Assembly (NCBI GenBank): GCA_964581585.1
Contig: CAZOPG010000001.1
Span: 1 to 24,102, forward strand
Length of the DNA stretch: 24,102 bases
From: an uncultured Planctomycetaceae bacterium
GTDB taxonomy: Bacteria > Planctomycetota > Phycisphaerae > Sedimentisphaerales > UBA12454
Direction of reading: 5' to 3'
Positions 3,137 to 10,615 of the stretch are shown here, in pieces; positions within the stretch are counted from its first letter, which is position 1; the number at the start of each line of letters is the position of its first letter. The notes beneath the pieces are model-generated. The model made no database searches, had not been told where the DNA came from, and saw only the letters and a program-made list of their open reading frames with translations. The translations under genes were made by a program, and so were the position numbers.

Positions 3137-4441
3137 ATGAGAGTTATTGCGGTAATTAACCAAAAGGGCGGTGTTGGCAAAACGACGGTTTCTATCAACT
3201 TGGCCAGTTGCCTAGCGGAAGCTGGTAATCGCACTTTGCTGGTCGATATGGACCCTCAATCGCATTGCGCGGTGGGTCTGGCGGTTCCTGAAGAGCAGGT
3301 TGAGCAGAGTATTTACGATGTTCTGATAAGTGCCAGCAGAGACGAGTCGATCAATCTGAGTGAAATTCTCTGGGAGATATCCGATAGACTCTCGCTGGCC
3401 CCGGCCAGTATTGATCTGGCCGCTTTCGACCAGCAGATGTCAGGCATTATCGACCGTGAAAATAGTCTTGCCGAGGTCCTCAATCCAGTCAGCGGCAAAT
3501 ATGATTATGTCATCATTGATTGTCCGCCGGCAGTAGGGTTGTTGACGTTTAATGCAATTCGGGCAGCTACCGACGTAATTGTTCCGGTAGAAACAGGTTA
3601 CTTTTCGCTGCATGGGCTTAGCAAACAGCTCGAAACCCTGAACATTCTTTGTAAGCAGTGTTCTCAGCAGATCAATGTTATGGTTCTTGCCAGCATGTAC
3701 GATATTCGCACGAAAATGGCGAGAGAAATACTTGGTGAGCTTCGTAAGCATTTCTCTGAGAACATGTTCAAAACTATTGTTAATTTCAATACTAAGCTGA
3801 AAGAAGCGACCAGTCTTGGACAACCTGTGAATGAATATTACCCTACGTGTAAGGGGCACAAAGATTTCCAGGAACTGGCCAATGAGCTTACCAGTTCCGA
3901 TAGCAGTGTTAGCAGGCTTAGGCTTCCCGAAAGAGAAGTTGCAACTATCGAGCCCGCCACAAAGCCTAAAAAAGCTGTTGTGCCTTTGGCGAAAGAGAAA
4001 TTGGTATCACCCAGAGAAGAGACTATTCGTACGCTAAGTGACGAACTCGCGGCGATAGGCGCCTCTGCCGATGAGCTTCTGGGTACGATGGAAATTGAAA
4101 AGCAGAAAAAGCAAGCCCCTCTCGCTGCCAGCGCAACGCTCGATGAGAAACTTGCAAATTTCTATGGTATTCGTCAGAGCGGCGGTGCTGTGAGTTTCGT
4201 TACGCTTTATCCGCAAGCCAAGAATGTTCAAATTGCTGGAGATTTCAATAGCTGGCAGCCGGAACTGACGCCGATGCAAAATCTCAATGATGACGGCAAA
4301 TGGCAACTTACGCTTCCGCTTGGGCCGGGAAAATACCGGTATCGGCTGGTAGTTGACGGACAGTGGCAGCAGGATCCTTACAACGAACAGTTAGAGGTGA
4401 ATCCCTTCGGTGAATTCAACTCTATTGTTGAGGTAAAATAA
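3137..4441 (+). CDS. ParA/Soj-family ATPase fused to a C-terminal AMPK-beta/CBM48-type glycogen-binding domain
   Basis: Deviant Walker A NQKGGVGKTT, Walker A' VDMDPQ and Walker B YVIIDCPP, then a charged linker of about 90 aa. The C-terminus reads AKNVQIAGDFNSW...GKWQLTLPLGPGKYRYRLVVDGQWQQDPYN...NPFGEFNSIVEV. SD GGAGG. Confidence 0.9.
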   Translation: MRVIAVINQKGGVGKTTVSINLASCLAEAGNRTLLVDMDPQSHCAVGLAVPEEQVEQSIYDVLISASRDESINLSEILWEISDRLSLAPASIDLAAFDQQMSGIIDRENSLAEVLNPVSGKYDYVIIDCPPAVGLLTFNAIRAATDVIVPVETGYFSLHGLSKQLETLNILCKQCSQQINVMVLASMYDIRTKMAREILGELRKHFSENMFKTIVNFNTKLKEATSLGQPVNEYYPTCKGHKDFQELANELTSSDSSVSRLRLPEREVATIEPATKPKKAVVPLAKEKLVSPREETIRTLSDELAAIGASADELLGTMEIEKQKKQAPLAASATLDEKLANFYGIRQSGGAVSFVTLYPQAKNVQIAGDFNSWQPELTPMQNLNDDGKWQLTLPLGPGKYRYRLVVDGQWQQDPYNEQLEVNPFGEFNSIVEVK

Positions 4442-4503: not shown

Positions 4504-5139
4504 ATGATGGAACTGTTCCGAAGAGGCCTGTATGGTGTGTTGGCGGTTTTTATAATCGCTATGGCGGTTTCTTATCCCGTTTACGCGACACATCTTTATT
4601 CTTCCGGGGGTGATTTTGATTTAGCAATACCTCCGCAAGAGTTGGGTAAGGGCTGGATGGAAGATGCGACAATATTTGTGCTGACCAAGGGGGTGGTGTT
4701 TGATGTTGATATTGCGTTAAATCTTACACACAGCAGTGCCTGTGATCTGAAGATTTATCTTCAGAGCCCTGCCGGGACAAGGGTTTGTCTGAACCGGTAC
4801 GATGTGGACGATTTTATTCCTTTTGAGCAGGATTTTTTGTGGACAATATTTGATGACGAGGCCCAGGTTGCTATCGAAGAGGGACGTGCCCCTTTTACGG
4901 GACGGTTTCGTCCGAAATCGCCGGGGCTGCTGTCTGTGTTCGACGGTGAAAATACTTATGGGCTTTGGCGCATTCAGATTTATGACGCAGTCTATGTCAA
5001 TCGCGGGACGTTTCATAATGCTCGTCTGGATTTTGTTGTCAATCCTGAGCCAGGCACGGTTGTTTTTATGATAATGAGTGTATTTTGGAGAAAAGTACAA
5101 TGTCAAAGAAAAGCAAAGCGGCAAAAAAAGTTCTGTTGA
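4504..5139 (+). CDS. Exported proprotein-convertase P-domain protein with PEP-CTERM-like sorting tail
   Basis: Signal peptide (MMELFRRGLYGVLAVFIIAMAVSYPVYA). P-domain motifs LNLTHSSACDLKIYLQSPAGT and GRFRP...LSVFDGENTYGLWRIQIYD. C-terminal NPEPGT, a hydrophobic stretch and a basic tail. The ORF is open from 4483; ATG 4504 is the likelier start. Confidence 0.8.
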   Translation: MMELFRRGLYGVLAVFIIAMAVSYPVYATHLYSSGGDFDLAIPPQELGKGWMEDATIFVLTKGVVFDVDIALNLTHSSACDLKIYLQSPAGTRVCLNRYDVDDFIPFEQDFLWTIFDDEAQVAIEEGRAPFTGRFRPKSPGLLSVFDGENTYGLWRIQIYDAVYVNRGTFHNARLDFVVNPEPGTVVFMIMSVFWRKVQCQRKAKRQKKFC

Positions 5140-5888
5140 TAATTGTTGTTTTAATAATTCTTGTAATAATTATGATTTATTCTTTTGGTAATCAGATGCT
5201 CAAGGCCGGAATTGAAAGGGCGGCAACTAAAAGTCTAAATGTTGGGGTCGCTATCGATGATGTTGACCTCTCTATTCTTGGCGGAAAAGTTAAAGTTGAA
5301 GAGATTGTAATTGATAATCCACCCGGATATGAACATGATAAGTTGCTTGAAATCGATAAGGTCAGAGTCGCAGTTAGTATCGGCTCTTTTTTGAGCGATA
5401 CGGTCAATATTAAAGAAATTGTGCTTGACGGCATTGAGGTTGTAGTTGAACAAAAAGGGCTTAGTAACAATCTGCAAGAGGTTATTAAATCGATACCCAA
5501 GTCAAAGAAAAAAGAGGAAACTGAAACAAAAAAACCTGCGAAAAAGCTTCATATCGATAGCCTTGAAATTACGAATGTTACCGTTAAGGTTAAGCTTTTG
5601 CCGATTTCCGGCAAGTCTGATACGATCCCGCTGAAGCTTGCTCCTATCCGAATGACCGATCTCGGCGGTAAAGACGGGGTCGATACAGCTAAACTAACTG
5701 GCAAAATTCTATTGGCTATTACCAAAGCTATAGCTGAACAGGGCACCGAAGTTTTACCCACAGATATGATCGATGGGTTGGAAGATTCTCTGGCACAAGT
5801 TGCAGAATTAGCGGAAGAAGGAGAAAAACTTCTAAAAGAAGGTGAGAATATCATCGAGGGTATCAAGGGGCTATTAAAAGGTAAATAA
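5100..5888 (+). CDS. AsmA-like (DUF748-type) membrane-anchored protein
   Basis: Basic N-terminus, one TM anchor, then the pattern DVDLSILGGKVKVEEIVIDNPPGY...VNIKEIVLDGIEVVVE. GGAG SD before ATG 5100; the ORF is open from TTG 5085. Confidence 0.7.
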   Translation: MSKKSKAAKKVLLIIVVLIILVIIMIYSFGNQMLKAGIERAATKSLNVGVAIDDVDLSILGGKVKVEEIVIDNPPGYEHDKLLEIDKVRVAVSIGSFLSDTVNIKEIVLDGIEVVVEQKGLSNNLQEVIKSIPKSKKKEETETKKPAKKLHIDSLEITNVTVKVKLLPISGKSDTIPLKLAPIRMTDLGGKDGVDTAKLTGKILLAITKAIAEQGTEVLPTDMIDGLEDSLAQVAELAEEGEKLLKEGENIIEGIKGLLKGK

Positions 5889-5897
5889 TACTAAATA

Positions 5898-5946
5898 AAC
5901 CTGGCCAAGCAGGTTGGCGTTGAAGAACCACTTGCAGTGCAGGTGG
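5898..5946. terminator. Tandem stem-loops after the AsmA-like gene, possible (bidirectional) terminator
   Basis: AACCTG/CAGGTT (5898-5915) and CCACTTGCA/TGCAGGTGG (5928-5946, one G-U pair). No clean plus-strand U tract. Confidence 0.35.
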
Positions 5947-6170
5947 CTAAAAATAGATGAATAATGTGTTGTGGGGCAGATGGTTGTTTTTGTTTTAAGA
6001 AGATAAATTCTCGAATAAATCGAGGGGCTAAGGATTTATTTATTGAAAAGAGACTTTTTCTGCTACGTCTTCTGGGGAATTCTTATCTGTTCTCTCTGAC
6101 CGTCAGGACAAACCCCTTTAATCCGGAAGCTTCGGTGGAGATTAAGTAGTACAACGGGCTGGTTTGGATT

Positions 6171-6347
6171 CTATTTGCGTCTTTCGGAACTGCTTCTACG
6201 GTCCTGTTCCTCTTGCCGGTCGTTGGAGTTTCCTCTTCGTTCTGCGTTCACAGGATTATTTTGTTTTCTGCGTTCCTCGCCTTTTCGGCGATCATTCTGC
6301 CGACGATCATCATCTGACCTTCGATTTTGAGAGTCATTTTCTGTCAT
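6171..6347 (-). CDS. 58-aa disordered micro-protein made of (D/E)RR repeats, candidate c-di-GMP-binding protein
   Basis: MTENDSQNRRSDDDRRQNDRRKGEERRKQNNPVNAERRGNSNDRQEEQDRRSSSERRK*. ATG at 6347, TAG at 6173-6171, SD GAGG 7 nt upstream. The repeats use varied synonymous Arg codons. Not in the ORF track. Confidence 0.75.
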   Translation of the reverse strand: MTENDSQNRRSDDDRRQNDRRKGEERRKQNNPVNAERRGNSNDRQEEQDRRSSSERRK

Positions 6348-6390
6348 AATTTGGCCTCATTGCTTAAAGATTTTTTTATACCCGATGTTT

Positions 6391-6419: not shown

Positions 6420-6460
6420 ATTAAGTAATGTTTTCATTGGGATACGGTGCTGAGAAATTC

Positions 6461-6489
6461 TTGACTTTTAAGCTCAAAATCGCTACTCT
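6461..6489 (+). promoter_or_regulatory. sigma70-like promoter of trpS-scpA
   Basis: TTGACT (6461-6466), 17 nt, TACTCT (6484-6489). Confidence 0.6.
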
Positions 6490-6541: not shown

Positions 6542-7507
6542 GTGAGAGTTCTTTCTGGAATACAGCCGTCTGGCAAGCTTCATATAGGTAATTATTTTGG
6601 TGCAATGAGGCAGCATCTCAAGTTGCAGGCCGAAAATGAAAGTTTTTATTTTATTGCGGATTATCACGCCTTAACAGGCTGTCCAAAGCCGGACGATTTG
6701 CGTCAGTACCGCCTTGATGTGGCGATGGACTACCTGTCGCTGGGGCTTAATCCCGACAAGACTGTGTTTTGGTGTCAATCGGATGTGCCGGAAGTTATCG
6801 AGCTGAGCTGGTTGCTCTCCTGTGTTACGCCGATGGGACTGCTGCAGCGATGCGTCAGCTACAAGGACAAGGTTGCTCAGGGGTTGAGTCCTAATCACGG
6901 GCTTTTTGCTTATCCGGTGCTTCAGGCAGCCGACATTCTGATTTTTGACAGTGAGCTTGTTCCTGTCGGCGCCGATCAAAAACAGCACATCGAAGTTACG
7001 CGTGATATTGCTCAGTACTTCAATAATACATATAACGAAGTTTTTGTTATCCCTGATGAATATATTTTGGAATCGGTCGCAGTTGTTCCAGGAGTTGACG
7101 GCAGAAAGATGAGCAAAAGTTACAATAACGCTATAGAGATATTCGAGCCTGAAAAACAGGTTAAAAAGAAAGTGATGCAGATAGTTACCGATTCTACGCC
7201 GGTAGCTGAACCGAAGGACCCCGAAAAGTGTAACGTATTTGCGATTTTGAAACTGGTTGCCTCAGAGGATGAATTGGCTGAGTGGGAAACAAAATATCGG
7301 CAGGGCGGTATGGGCTATGGAGATGTCAAAAAAAGGGTTGCTGAGTTGCTGATAGAATATTTTGCTCCGTACCGCCAGAGGCGTGCTGAACTTGAAAATA
7401 ATATTGATTATGTTGAGCAGGTATTGGCAGACGGTGCTGTTCGTGCTAAAGTTGTGGCTAAAGCTGTTCTTGCAAAGGCACGAAAAGCGGCTGGGCTTTC
7501 GAGTTGA
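6542..7507 (+). CDS. trpS: Tryptophan--tRNA ligase
   Basis: SGIQPSGKLHIGNY, YPVLQAADIL, VPVGADQKQHIE and KMSKS. GTG start with SD AGGAG. Confidence 0.97.
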   Translation: MRVLSGIQPSGKLHIGNYFGAMRQHLKLQAENESFYFIADYHALTGCPKPDDLRQYRLDVAMDYLSLGLNPDKTVFWCQSDVPEVIELSWLLSCVTPMGLLQRCVSYKDKVAQGLSPNHGLFAYPVLQAADILIFDSELVPVGADQKQHIEVTRDIAQYFNNTYNEVFVIPDEYILESVAVVPGVDGRKMSKSYNNAIEIFEPEKQVKKKVMQIVTDSTPVAEPKDPEKCNVFAILKLVASEDELAEWETKYRQGGMGYGDVKKRVAELLIEYFAPYRQRRAELENNIDYVEQVLADGAVRAKVVAKAVLAKARKAAGLSS

Positions 7508-7531
7508 CAAAAAGAGAGGTGATGTGAATAT

Positions 7532-8419
7532 ATGAGCGACTATCGTGTGAATCTTGATATTTTTTCCGGGCCTTTAGATCTACTGCTCTATCTTGTTCGC
7601 AAGGAAGAGGTGGATATTTATGATATATCGATTGCCAGTGTTACCACCGAGTATATTCGGTACGTTGAGGTTCTGAAGATGTTGAATATGGAACTGGCTG
7701 GGGATTTTTTGGTGATGGCGGCGACGTTGATGGAGATCAAGTCGGCAATGCTTTTGCCGGCGGACGAGATCGACGCTGTTGATGAGGAGCAGGGAGTTGA
7801 TCCGCGTAAGGAATTGATTCGGCAGCTTCTCGAATATAAAAAGTTCAAAGATGCCGCTAACATGCTCAAAAGTTCTTCTGATATTCAGGCTCAGCGTTAT
7901 CAACGCAGCGATGTGATTCTGACGCAGTTGGGTGATGAAACAGAGCCGGAAGTTGATATGGAACAACTCAGTATCTGGGATTTACTCAGTGCTTTCGATA
8001 CGGTTATGAAGTCGATTGGCACTGTGATGGATATCAGCCGTATCAGTGATGATACTCCGATTGATCTGTATCAGATTGAGATTTTACATCGTCTTCAGAG
8101 CGAAGGGGCTATGAGTTTTGAGCGAATTTTTGAAGGCAAAAAAAATAAACTTGTAATGATAGGTCTGTTCCTTGGGATCCTTGAGCTTGTGCGTGAAAAA
8201 CTTATTACCGCTGAACAATCTGAGGAAACAGGGGCGATATATCTGCGTTCGTTGACGGATATCCCGGCAGAAGAAGCGGTTCGCAGCGCAATTTTAACCT
8301 CTACCGATGAAGAAACTGCTGAGAAAGATGAGGTTCAGCAACCTCGAATTCGTATTGAAGAAATTCCCGCAGAAAAGATGCCGCAAGAGCAGGAAAATGT
8401 ACCCTTGAACGGTTCATAA
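7532..8419 (+). CDS. scpA: Segregation and condensation protein A (SMC kleisin)
   Basis: FSGPLDLLLYLVRKEEVDIYDI, AGDFLVMAATLMEIKSAMLLP, DPRKELIRQLLEYKKFK and FLGILELVR, plus an acidic C-terminal extension. Confidence 0.93.
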   Translation: MSDYRVNLDIFSGPLDLLLYLVRKEEVDIYDISIASVTTEYIRYVEVLKMLNMELAGDFLVMAATLMEIKSAMLLPADEIDAVDEEQGVDPRKELIRQLLEYKKFKDAANMLKSSSDIQAQRYQRSDVILTQLGDETEPEVDMEQLSIWDLLSAFDTVMKSIGTVMDISRISDDTPIDLYQIEILHRLQSEGAMSFERIFEGKKNKLVMIGLFLGILELVREKLITAEQSEETGAIYLRSLTDIPAEEAVRSAILTSTDEETAEKDEVQQPRIRIEEIPAEKMPQEQENVPLNGS

Positions 8420-8436
8420 GTGGACGATTTAATTGT

Positions 8437-8465
8437 TTGACATATCGTGGGTTTGTAACTACAAT
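8437..8465 (+). promoter_or_regulatory. sigma70 promoter of trxA-aspS(-kinase)
   Basis: TTGACA (8437-8442), 17 nt, TACAAT (8460-8465); near consensus. Confidence 0.75.
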
Positions 8466-8505
8466 TACTGCCTTGAGTCAATAAGGTATTGGAAAGGATT
8501 TAATA

Positions 8506-8844
8506 ATGGCGGGTAGTTTGACAGAATTGACTGATGCGGAATTTGATACTCTTGTACACAGCTCCGCAGAGCCGGTATTGGTGGATTTCTGGGCTCCGTG
8601 GTGCGGGCCATGTAAAATGCTTGCGCCTGTGATCCAGGAGATCGCTGATGAATATGCCGATCGGGCTAAAGTATGTAAGCTGAATACTGATGAGCATCAC
8701 GAAGCAGCAGTGGAATTTAGTATAAATGCGATCCCGACAATTATTCTGTTTCACAATGGGCAGATGGCCAAAAAATGGGTCGGACTTGTGAGCAAGAACG
8801 ATATTGTTGAGGGGATTGACGAAGTCCTTCAGGATCAAAGCTAA
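8506..8844 (+). CDS. trxA: Thioredoxin
   Basis: VDFWAPWCGPCKM active site and cis-Pro motif AIPT. Confidence 0.97.
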   Translation: MAGSLTELTDAEFDTLVHSSAEPVLVDFWAPWCGPCKMLAPVIQEIADEYADRAKVCKLNTDEHHEAAVEFSINAIPTIILFHNGQMAKKWVGLVSKNDIVEGIDEVLQDQS

Positions 8845-8848
8845 AAGT

Positions 8849-10615
8849 ATGCTGAAGAGAACACATAATTGCGGCCAGCTCTGCATAGATGATGTTGGCA
8901 GCAAAGTTTCGCTTGCTGGCTGGGTTCATTCCTATCGTGATCATGGCAGTCTGGTCTTTCTCGACCTTCGTGACCGCTATGGGATTACTCAATTGGTTTT
9001 TGATGCTGAAAAGCAGTCCGACCTTCACAGACAGTCTCAACAGATACGCTGCGAATGGGTTATCGCTATTTCAGGTGTTGTCGCTGGTCGAGGTAAGAGT
9101 AATCCGAAATTGCCGACCGGAGAAATCGAAGTAGCGATCGATGATCTGGAAATTCTGAACAAGGCCAAGACCCCTCCATTTGAGCTGGATGCCGCTGAAA
9201 ACGTTGACGAAGAACTTCGGCTGACTAATCGGTATATTGATCTACGCAGGCCGGCGATGCAAAATAAATTGCGAGTCAGACACAGGGTGGCGAAAATTGT
9301 TCGTGATTTTTATGACAGCGAGGGTTTCTGGGAAATTGAAACTCCGTTTCTTGGCAAAAGTACGCCTGAGGGGGCCAGAGACTATCTTGTTCCGAGCAGA
9401 CTCTCGGCGGGATGTTTTTATGCACTGCCGCAATCTCCTCAATTGTTTAAGCAGCTTCTGATGGTTAGTGGCGTCGATAAATATTTTCAGATCGTTCGCT
9501 GTTTTCGTGATGAGGACCCGCGTGCGGATCGGCAGGCGGAGTTTACGCAGATCGATGTGGAGATGAGCTTTGTTGACAGTGAAGATGTGATAGACATAAA
9601 CGAAAGACTTGCCGCGCAGATATGGAAAGAAGTGCTCGGAGTCGATGTTGAATTGCCAATGAAACGTATCAGCTATAAACAGTCGGTGGATGAATATGGA
9701 ATCGACAGGCCTGATATGCGTTTTGATATGAAGCTTAAAGATATTTCCGATATCGCAAAAGAGAGCGGCTTTGGGGTGTTTACTTCTACTATTGAAAACG
9801 GTGGAGTTGTGAAGGGCCTTTGTGGGCCGGGAGCGGGGAGTTATTCGAGGAAGGATATCGAAAAGACGCTGACGGGATTTGTGGCGGATTACGGAGCCAA
9901 GGGTCTGGCGTGGTTTAAGATTGCCAAGGCAGGCGAACTTGCTGGGCCTTCTGCTAAGTTCTTTGACAGTGATCAGCAGCAGCAGATAATAAGCCGCTTC
10001 GGCGCAACTGAAAATGATCTGATACTTCTGATCGCTGACAAGGAGGGTAATGCTAATAAAGCCCTTGCGCCATTGCGTGTGAAGTTAGGTAGAGATCTGA
10101 AGCTGTACGACGATGATGCTTACTCATTTGTATGGGTTGTGGATTTTCCATTGTTTGAATGGAACGAAGATGCTCAGCGATACGACTCTCTGCACCATCC
10201 TTTTACAGCACCGGTAGCTGAAGATATTGAAAAACTTGATACGGACCCTGGCAATATCTGCTCGCAGGCATACGATATTGTTGTCAACGGTTCGGAAATC
10301 GGCGGAGGCAGTATTCGTATTCATCAGCCGGAGATGCAGGCCAAAGTTTTTGATCTGCTTAATATTTCCAAAGAGCAGGCTAATGACCGGTTCGGTTTTT
10401 TTCTCAAGGCTCTTGAGTATGGTGCGCCTCCTCACGGCGGAATTGCATTTGGGCTTGACAGGCTTGTTATGCTACTGACCGAGACCGAAAATATTCGTGA
10501 TGTTATTGCTTTTCCAAAGACTCTTCGTGGCCAGTGTCTTATGACGGATGCTCCCGGGCTGGTTGAGCAGGGGCAATTGGACGAACTTAATCTGCGAACA
10601 CAAAAACACCATTAG
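8849..10615 (+). CDS. aspS: Aspartate--tRNA ligase, probably non-discriminating Asp/Asn type
   Basis: MLKRTHNCGQL start at ATG 8849 (the track extends to 8804). RDHG, motif 2 FRDEDPRADRQAEFTQ, GAD insert and motif 3 GGIAFGLDRL. Confidence 0.97.
   Translation: MLKRTHNCGQLCIDDVGSKVSLAGWVHSYRDHGSLVFLDLRDRYGITQLVFDAEKQSDLHRQSQQIRCEWVIAISGVVAGRGKSNPKLPTGEIEVAIDDLEILNKAKTPPFELDAAENVDEELRLTNRYIDLRRPAMQNKLRVRHRVAKIVRDFYDSEGFWEIETPFLGKSTPEGARDYLVPSRLSAGCFYALPQSPQLFKQLLMVSGVDKYFQIVRCFRDEDPRADRQAEFTQIDVEMSFVDSEDVIDINERLAAQIWKEVLGVDVELPMKRISYKQSVDEYGIDRPDMRFDMKLKDISDIAKESGFGVFTSTIENGGVVKGLCGPGAGSYSRKDIEKTLTGFVADYGAKGLAWFKIAKAGELAGPSAKFFDSDQQQQIISRFGATENDLILLIADKEGNANKALAPLRVKLGRDLKLYDDDAYSFVWVVDFPLFEWNEDAQRYDSLHHPFTAPVAEDIEKLDTDPGNICSQAYDIVVNGSEIGGGSIRIHQPEMQAKVFDLLNISKEQANDRFGFFLKALEYGAPPHGGIAFGLDRLVMLLTETENIRDVIAFPKTLRGQCLMTDAPGLVEQGQLDELNLRTQKHH

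Follow-up and report, generated by a model that had tools for sequence, protein, structure and literature searches.

An arginine-rich microprotein gene beside trpS in a Phycisphaerae bacterium and the wider occurrence of its [DE]RR motif

Can an open reading frame (ORF) of 58 codons, whose product is little more than arginine pairs set among acidic and polar residues, be a functional gene, and if so, what might that product do? The question is raised by a stretch of 24,102 nucleotides from an uncultured planctomycete (assembly GCA_964581585.1, contig CAZOPG010000001.1, positions 1 to 24,102; hereafter the window), in which such an ORF lies on the minus strand at 6171-6347, divergent from trpS. 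A first reading, made from the sequence alone (the sequence-only reading), had taken it for a hidden gene whose product acts as a stand-alone buffer, or 'sponge', for the second messenger cyclic di-GMP (c-di-GMP). The ORF is very probably a real protein-coding gene, as judged from its conservation in a second genome. We propose, with confidence that is evenly poised, that its product is a portable short-linear binding module in stand-alone form, with a core that recurs in other bacterial proteins. The two features on which the argument turns are the following.

6171..6347, minus strand: microprotein coding sequence of 58 amino acids (aa), from ATG at 6347-6345 to TAG at 6173-6171, taken from the ORF list and its translation; product MTENDSQNRRSDDDRRQNDRRKGEERRKQNNPVNAERRGNSNDRQEEQDRRSSSERRK
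6234..6293, minus strand: core motif, residues 19-38, DRRKGEERRKQNNPVNAERR, of the form [DE]RR-x3-[DE]RRKQNxP-x3-[DE]RR

A coding sequence conserved beside trpS

When 1.84 billion representative proteins were scanned in full with HMMER, only one matched (P0001, E 4.6e-4); it, too, is 58 aa long and aligns with the window protein end to end, ungapped, at 49% identity. Its gene lies on an 11-kb metagenome contig (L086), 188 bp from trpS and divergent from a trpS-scpA-trx-aspS cluster. The TrpS and ScpA proteins of this contig are 85% and 82% identical to those of the window, placing it closer to the window organism than any reference genome. In the DNA alignment, the two loci have in common the ATG, the TAG, the sequence AATGAGG, the -10-like block and a 15-nt block containing TTGACT. 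Differences within the ORF fall at codon positions 1, 2 and 3 in the proportion 18/12/32 (chi-square ~10, P ~0.006), 11 of the 28 residues identical between the proteins are encoded by different codons, and the Nei-Gojobori dN/dS is 0.37. The residues that the two orthologues share are exactly the triads and the central RRKQNxP, in a protein that otherwise evolves fast (49% identity, compared with 82-87% for the neighbouring genes). The earlier claim of a genuine coding sequence is therefore borne out by a syntenic 58-codon orthologue with conserved start, stop and ribosome-binding site, by the third-position bias and by the dN/dS value.

The signals conserved around the gene, and the neighbour that anchors the synteny, are these.

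6355..6358, minus strand: Shine-Dalgarno-like GAGG, 7 nt before the ATG, read in the sequence; AATGAGG is identical and equally distant in L086
6399..6404, minus strand: -10-like hexamer TATAAT, ~52 nt upstream of the ATG, from the sequence and the alignment
6455..6469, plus strand: block AAATTCTTGACTTTT, with a -35-like TTGACT for the divergent trpS; 15/15 bases are the same in L086
6542..7507, plus strand: trpS (Pfam tRNA-synt_1b, E 1.7e-65), outside the element; its divergent neighbour, which anchors the synteny

The intergenic spacer around the AAATTCTTGACTTTT block has diverged between the window and L086. Around the -10-like hexamer, a block TTA.GGGTA.AATGC is kept in the DNA alignment, and the hexamer itself reads TAGAAT in L086. 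A consensus promoter scan reported neither a -10 nor a -35 element for the microprotein gene, and no convincing -35 is present; we regard TATAAT as a plausible -10 box. The gene's own ribosome-binding site and plausible promoter, divergent from trpS, had been proposed before; GAGG and TATAAT can indeed be read in the sequence and are conserved in L086.

Might the locus nevertheless have no functional protein product, the ORF having arisen by chance in a spacer rich in purines, or the transcript serving as a non-coding RNA or as a regulatory leader with many Arg codons whose peptide is irrelevant? The gene is absent from most relatives, and its seven Arg-Arg codon pairs superficially recall attenuator leaders. 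We consider this explanation very improbable, since start, stop, length, Shine-Dalgarno sequence and frame are conserved in P0001 with change biased to third positions, and since residues other than arginine (K28, Q29, N30, P32 and the acidic D/E) are conserved too. An attenuator leader is rejected, as the next gene is convergent and nothing lies downstream on the minus strand to be regulated. We read the gene as monocistronic. Folding of the RNA is no better than that of shuffled sequences on either strand (z -0.62 and +0.17), and the 654-bp spacer gave no Rfam match at E<=1, no tRNA and no excess folding energy, on which grounds we rejected a riboswitch, a T-box or any other known RNA there. 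An antisense ORF at 6175..6330 on the plus strand was also rejected. Its frame, which shares wobble positions with the sense frame, shows a higher amino-acid identity to L086 (0.60), as expected for such a frame, but it has an internal stop in L086 and neither its start nor its stop is conserved. We conclude that this broken frame is a by-product of the sense frame.

That gene callers had missed the ORF proved incorrect. Prodigal-type callers have called it as a gene on four or more metagenome contigs in ENA that belong to the same strain, and P0001 and >160 clusters of motif relatives have been called as well. A word-indexed homologue search and an exact look-up with the 58-aa protein returned nothing, although the protein is recorded on those contigs. 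A first metagenome scan with the single protein gave 598 pattern matches, of which 0 were confirmed, and low-complexity masking at the confirmation step is suspected. Negative results from word-indexed, exact and pattern searches should therefore be treated cautiously for low-complexity microproteins.

In 80 GTDB representative genomes, no syntenic homologue came up by tblastn, a composition filter, a profile search or inspection. The best TrpS matches among species-representative genomes are 72-80% identical and come from metagenome-assembled genomes labelled Planctomycetes, Phycisphaerae, Sedimentisphaerales or Anaerohalosphaeraceae. These matches bear out the earlier guess at the phylum, Planctomycetota, and mark the lineage as Phycisphaerae/Sedimentisphaerales-like. 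The trpS-scpA order, often with aspS too, is preserved across Phycisphaerae-like relatives (window 6542-10615 compared with L006-L086). The upstream side of trpS is a synteny breakpoint, at which the neighbour differs in almost every genome. The microprotein gene keeps to trpS in both genomes that possess it, and it has so far come to light only in a narrow Phycisphaerae clade.

The [DE]RR array and its occurrence in other proteins

The 58-aa protein carries six [DE]RR triplets (at residues 14, 19, 25, 36, 49 and 55), with NRR at 8-10 and DRQ at 43-45, and seven RR pairs hold 14 of its 15 arginines. One RxxxR string (R16-R20) and three RxxD strings also occur. The only hydrophobic residues are M1, V33 and A35, and there are no aromatics. 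In these respects, and in the longer strings RRSDDDRR, DRRKGEERR and DRRSSSERR, the sequence-only reading described the protein accurately. In 20,000 composition-fixed shuffles, the mean number of [DE]RR triplets was 0.9 and 0 shuffles reached six (P<5e-5), so the array is not a result of composition; RR pairs numbered seven, compared with 3.7 expected (P=0.03). ORFs of like composition were found in no frame of ~600 kb from the 80 related genomes.

Repeats are essentially absent at the DNA level. Tandem Repeats Finder reported no tandem repeat in the microprotein DNA, which contains only two 10-nt direct repeats, just one of them in frame with a D-R-R unit and the other out of frame. We therefore reject a DNA tandem repeat as the source, and regard the array as a feature of the protein. 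This agrees with the earlier argument from mixed arginine codons: all six types occur in the 58-codon ORF, and the syntenic orthologue keeps the exact [DE]RR positions.

Structure prediction gave no fold. The AlphaFold2 model, built from a 39-sequence alignment, has a mean predicted local distance difference test score (pLDDT) of 59, a predicted template-modelling score of 0.12, all residues below pLDDT 70 and zero secondary-structure elements. With 18 basic and 14 acidic residues, the charged fraction is 0.55, the net charge per residue +0.07 (+0.02 in the marine relatives described below) and kappa ~0.09. The protein is thus predicted to be a disordered, nearly neutral, well-mixed polyampholyte. 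Non-specific binding to nucleic acid or any other polyanion is made less likely by a charge so close to neutral.

A degenerate DNA pattern encoding [DE]RR-x3-[DE]RRKQNxP was then run against JGI metagenomes. The pattern carries ~39 bits, for which we estimate that few chance matches are expected. It matched 27 loci, all in frame inside ORFs, and nearly all of these show a continuation that had not been searched for, P-[VI]-x-x-[DE]RR, as well as an extra upstream triad. The loci fall into four architectures.

Group A: free-standing 41-44-aa proteins on low-GC marine contigs, for example MNNNSNSGSDRKDNERRASEDRRKQNVPVNDDRRVVKDDRRND
Group B: ~160-aa proteins on high-GC contigs, the motif being followed by the invariant RRRQIDPTTCERDY..EIEFM.A.D.YKR.SGRMFPTCSEILEV...LGY
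Group C: membrane proteins with the motif N-terminal to DUF5658
Group D: a 103-codon ORF, also on a contig classed as viral

The core thus occurs free-standing, in marine bacterial proteins of 40-46 aa, and N-terminally on unrelated larger proteins. Among 21 sequences from five groups, R20, R21, R26, R27, K28, Q29, N30 and P32 are invariant and R37/R38 nearly so, all of these positions save R37/R38 having been imposed by the search pattern. On contigs that span 35-67% GC, both CGN and AGR codons serve for the conserved arginines. Searching a 5.8-billion-protein index with a profile of all groups identified 167 clusters, and the top 120 of the 167 are proteins of 40-60 aa that are unnamed or labelled 'hypothetical'. 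On a profile built from the marine proteins only, the window protein scored 17.0 bits, compared with a maximum of 5.3 in 20,000 shuffles. Proteins of the group that we propose are 40-60 aa long, lack a hydrophobic core and carry the core motif flanked by further [DE]R[RK] triads, as does the window protein. [quoted passage not shown] Neither the motif nor the microprotein group, widespread as they are, has been described, and Pfam, NCBIfam, PDB and the searchable literature have no entry for them.

An invariant triad spacing and an uncharged KQNxP, with other residues turning over and the unit standing either alone or at termini, fit a portable short-linear module. Such a module would be unfolded alone and would become ordered on one specific partner, which it may contact through paired guanidinium groups and the adjacent carboxylate. 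The free-standing proteins, including the window microprotein, would then act as small adaptors or effectors and not by bulk sequestration.

Several observations weigh against this proposal. When the 14 search-defining residues are left out, the window protein retains marginal similarity to the marine microproteins (P ~0.011) and P0001 none (P ~0.5). The groups need not share an ancestor, therefore, and the motif may have arisen by convergence. Genomic contexts also differ, with trpS in the Phycisphaerae pair and TPR-GDSL-cspA in the marine group. The marine proteins have a pN/pS of ~0.77 and no third-position bias, the neighbourhoods of motif-bearing genes that we examined gave no functional hint, and the microprotein gene is absent beside trpS in the 80 genomes whose TrpS is <=80% identical to that of the window.

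Some of the same evidence bears on another explanation, in which the protein is a non-specific hydrophilic polyampholyte, such as a hydrophilin-like stress protectant or a condensate modulator, which would act through its composition and charge patterning and not through a binding site. The microprotein is a strong polyampholyte, its kappa is low, it has no predicted fold and its sequence turns over fast (49% identity beside neighbours at 82-87%), all as would be expected, and a pN/pS near 0.8 in the marine group is in agreement with it. We nevertheless consider it improbable, because triad positions, their spacing and the uncharged KQNxP are invariant across groups that span 35-67% GC, and because shuffles of matched composition contain far fewer [DE]RR triplets. 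Two known types of protein resemble the microprotein in part. The arginine-enriched mixed-charge (RD/RE) domains of eukaryotic RNA-processing proteins are long and dipeptide-based, with alternating Arg and Asp/Glu; they share well-mixed charges with the microprotein but have neither [DE]RR triads nor a KQNxP core. The KGG-repeat stress proteins (YciG/PA2146 type) are likewise small, disordered, hydrophilic and bacterial, with short repeats, but they differ from the window protein in repeat and composition, and no Pfam KGG match was found here.

The marine microprotein gene has a fixed place, between a TPR/BamD-like gene on one side and a GDSL lipase gene and the cold-shock gene cspA on the other (L098:9086-11864, L114:3976-6784, L088, L099, L111, L115-L117); in this lineage the protein is 40-44 aa long. 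Genes for a fucosidase and for proteins with type IX secretion system (T9SS) sorting domains lie near it. The T9SS-type sorting domains suggest that the hosts are probably bacteria of the Fibrobacteres-Chlorobi-Bacteroidetes (FCB) group.

Group B proteins, of ~120-230 aa, have three or four DRR triads and the RRKQNxP core ahead of their near-invariant segment, and match nothing in Pfam, NCBIfam, PDB or the searchable literature. Members are found on L087, L089, L090, L092, L093, L095, L096, L100, L104, L108, L109 and L113 (for example L096:2624-3178, minus strand); on L096 the gene adjoins rplU and lies near thrS. The DUF5658 membrane proteins of group C (L107:2043-2738 and L112:10337-10867, both plus strand) carry ERR-x3-[DE]RRKQNxP on an N-terminal tail that is presumably cytoplasmic. 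Their genes have a response regulator gene (L107) or OsmC and DsrE-like genes (L112) as neighbours. The 103-codon ORF of group D, ending in ...DRRLSSDRRKQNYPISIERRRKRTNGDRRNRNEMCHV, is identical at L105:4280-4591 (minus strand) and L118:3633-3944 (plus strand), one copy being on a metagenome contig of 64 kb and the other on a contig of 48.5 kb that IMG/VR classes as viral. A PHROG search with the ORFs beside it matched only a ParB-like protein.

Surroundings of the microprotein gene

In the window, the microprotein gene occupies a 654-bp spacer between a convergent AsmA/DUF748-like gene (5085-5888, plus strand) and the divergent trpS, beyond which come scpA and aspS. On the downstream side of the microprotein gene, 280 bp (5889-6170) are free of genes; this stretch has no Rfam match and contains two terminator-like hairpins.

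6010..6024, minus strand: terminator-like hairpin with a T-rich tail, ~150 nt past the stop, from the consensus scan; a candidate, with a weak 5-bp stem
5898..5915, minus strand: second terminator-like hairpin, from the consensus scan and the sequence, with a T-rich tail on the minus strand only

The second hairpin is placed between the microprotein gene and the convergent AsmA-like gene. The two minus-strand hairpins (6024..6010 and 5915..5898) suggest a possible 3' untranslated region of 150-280 nt. In L086, the next gene ends just 26 bp past the microprotein stop.

Elsewhere in the window (3137-4441, plus strand), a ParA/MinD-type ATPase (AAA_31, CbiA, BcsQ-like) has a C-terminal glycogen-binding module (AMPK1_CBM / CBM48). 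This unusual ATPase-CBM48 fusion might tie a positioning ATPase to glycogen granules.

Candidate partners of the motif

If the window microprotein is indeed a copy of a binding module, what does it bind? We infer a specific partner from the conservation pattern, and its identity can be discussed only in graded terms. A protein is a tentative possibility. A guanine-containing nucleotide messenger such as dimeric c-di-GMP seems rather doubtful, and a specific RNA doubtful.

The c-di-GMP idea holds that the acids and arginines of the [DE]RR array read guanine edges, making the protein a stand-alone receptor or buffer. It was originally argued from two motifs, neither of which survives comparison. 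The single RxxxR had been read as the signature of PilZ. One such string is expected by chance at 26% Arg; it is R16-QND-R20 in the window protein and R16-QIE-R20 in P0001; in the marine relatives, K or E takes the place of its first R. The second PilZ half-motif, (D/N)x(S/A)xxG, is absent, the only glycines being G23 and G39, neither with [DN] at -5 plus [SA] at -3. Pfam returned no family at E<=0.1 for the 58-aa protein, PilZ and GGDEF included, and no fold is predicted. Single-domain PilZ receptors (MapZ/PA4608) resemble the microprotein in the concept of a small stand-alone receptor and in the RxxxR string. PilZ, however, is a folded beta-barrel of ~100 aa with that second motif, and the window protein has no such motif and no predicted fold. 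The three RxxD strings (from R9, R10 and R16), taken earlier for I-sites, become DxxD, RxxI and RxxE in P0001. The I-site RxxD belongs to a folded GGDEF domain, and those of the window protein are a by-product of composition.

The closest known analogue is the Arg-rich region of the CheY-like Cle proteins of Caulobacter, with the engineered peptides CSP1-CSP4 derived from it. In the CleD-derived peptide, D154, R155, R156, R169 and D172 contact the guanines of an intercalated c-di-GMP dimer (PMC5677366, PMC7382256). The Cle arginine-rich region (ARR) motif is a tandem [YF]xGP[DE][RK]R (PMC5677366), and the CSP motif has also been given as DRR-x11-[R/K]RxxD (PMC7382256). The peptide CSP1 is unfolded in its apo form, as judged by nuclear magnetic resonance, and the peptide is portable on grafting (PMC5677366, PMC7382256). 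Affinity falls 25-fold in Y163A and 43-fold in G165A, binding is lost entirely in R169A, and single-residue loop deletions cost 2- to 11-fold (PMC7382256). Because [DE][RK]R triads of Cle/CSP contact guanines, the c-di-GMP idea has a real basis. Natural small proteins made of such arrays and serving as c-di-GMP sinks, which the sequence-only reading mentioned, did not come to light; what the literature offers is the Arg-rich C-terminal peptide of CleD and engineered sequestering peptides derived from it (PMC5677366, PMC7382256).

How far does the likeness go? In the CleD peptide, the dimer is held by the D154-R155-R156 triad together with a further [RK]R...D element. The [DE]RR-motif family likewise shows [DE]RR in tandem on either side of a loop that contains Pro. 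Residues 25-43 of the window protein read [DE]RR-x9-RR-x3/4-D, a span of 18-19 residues compared with 19 in the minimal peptide. Like free CSP, the microprotein is disordered, at least by prediction, and its motif is also found as a terminal add-on of other proteins. Against this, the counterparts of the affinity-determining aromatic (Tyr163) and of Gly165 are missing. The tandem [YF]xGP[DE][RK]R is not found, there being no Tyr or Phe and no Gly-Pro in the window protein, P0001 or the marine consensus. The DRR-x11-[R/K]RxxD spacing is not found either, the nearest arrangement being [DE]25RR-x9-R37R38-x3/4-D42/43, so that the loop is two residues shorter. The net charge is close to zero, compared with +0.26 per residue in the CSP peptide, and RxxD and RxxxR are not conserved in the relatives. 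The 24-kb window and the neighbourhoods examined contain no GGDEF, EAL, HD-GYP or PilZ gene, and a role as sponge would need very high expression.

Cle/CSP and the window protein are thus alike in being short linear elements, unfolded alone (by prediction here) and portable, with tandem acidic-Arg/Lys-Arg triads, a Pro loop and a span of ~19 residues. They differ in that Cle/CSP is strongly basic, has an 11-residue spacer and sits at the C-terminus of a receiver domain almost only in Alphaproteobacteria, whereas the window protein is nearly neutral, has a 9-residue spacer with KQNxP and is a free-standing 58-aa protein of the Planctomycetota. In the fused relatives the motif is N-terminal to DUF5658 or to an unannotated domain, and Cle ARR is C-terminal on a CheY-like receiver. 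By analogy, the microprotein may function as a Cle peptide does, although it does not belong to the Cle family. We regard the sponge hypothesis as reasonable but doubtful. The more general proposal, that [DE]RR-x3-[DE]RRKQNxP-x3-[DE]RR would be a naturally occurring linear receptor that lacks aromatics and binds dimeric c-di-GMP or some related cyclic (di)nucleotide, is on the same analogy unlikely.

RNA has to be weighed as well. Lambda N and the HIV Tat and Rev RNA-binding peptides are short, disordered, Arg-rich and strongly net-positive, contain ERR and fold on binding. An arginine-rich-motif microprotein of this kind, associated for example with the ribosome, a tRNA or an mRNA, would fold on a specific RNA. 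The microprotein is short and disordered by prediction, with 26% Arg and conserved Asn/Gln, and ERR strings are generally known from Arg-rich peptides such as lambda N. There are also translation genes in the vicinity, namely trpS and aspS in the window, cspA in the marine group, and rplU and thrS next to one of the fused homologues. These neighbours, however, vary by lineage and are ordinary housekeeping genes. The strong net positive charge of Arg-rich RNA-binding peptides is not found here (+0.07 per residue). Such peptides have no regular acidic partner, whereas the [DE]RR microproteins are charge-balanced, with a net charge of ~0 to +4 and an obligatory acidic residue before each RR. An RNA-binding microprotein of that type is, in our estimation, distinctly unlikely.

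Bacterial microproteins are under-annotated, and a mechanism has been assigned for very few disordered ones. Here, an ORF that resembles low-complexity noise is conserved and syntenic, and is built on a motif present in at least 167 clusters and at the N-termini of two uncharacterised protein groups. The motif, of just ~20 residues, is within reach of direct peptide synthesis. If it binds c-di-GMP, it would represent a new minimal type of receptor and, with it, a sequestering peptide already made by nature. In that case the free-standing proteins of 40-58 aa would be natural counterparts of the engineered c-di-GMP-sequestering peptides, and the DUF5658 and ~160-aa proteins would be under second-messenger control, in phyla with few known effectors. 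If instead the motif binds a protein or RNA, it would constitute a compact short-linear-motif system reused by bacteria of different phyla.

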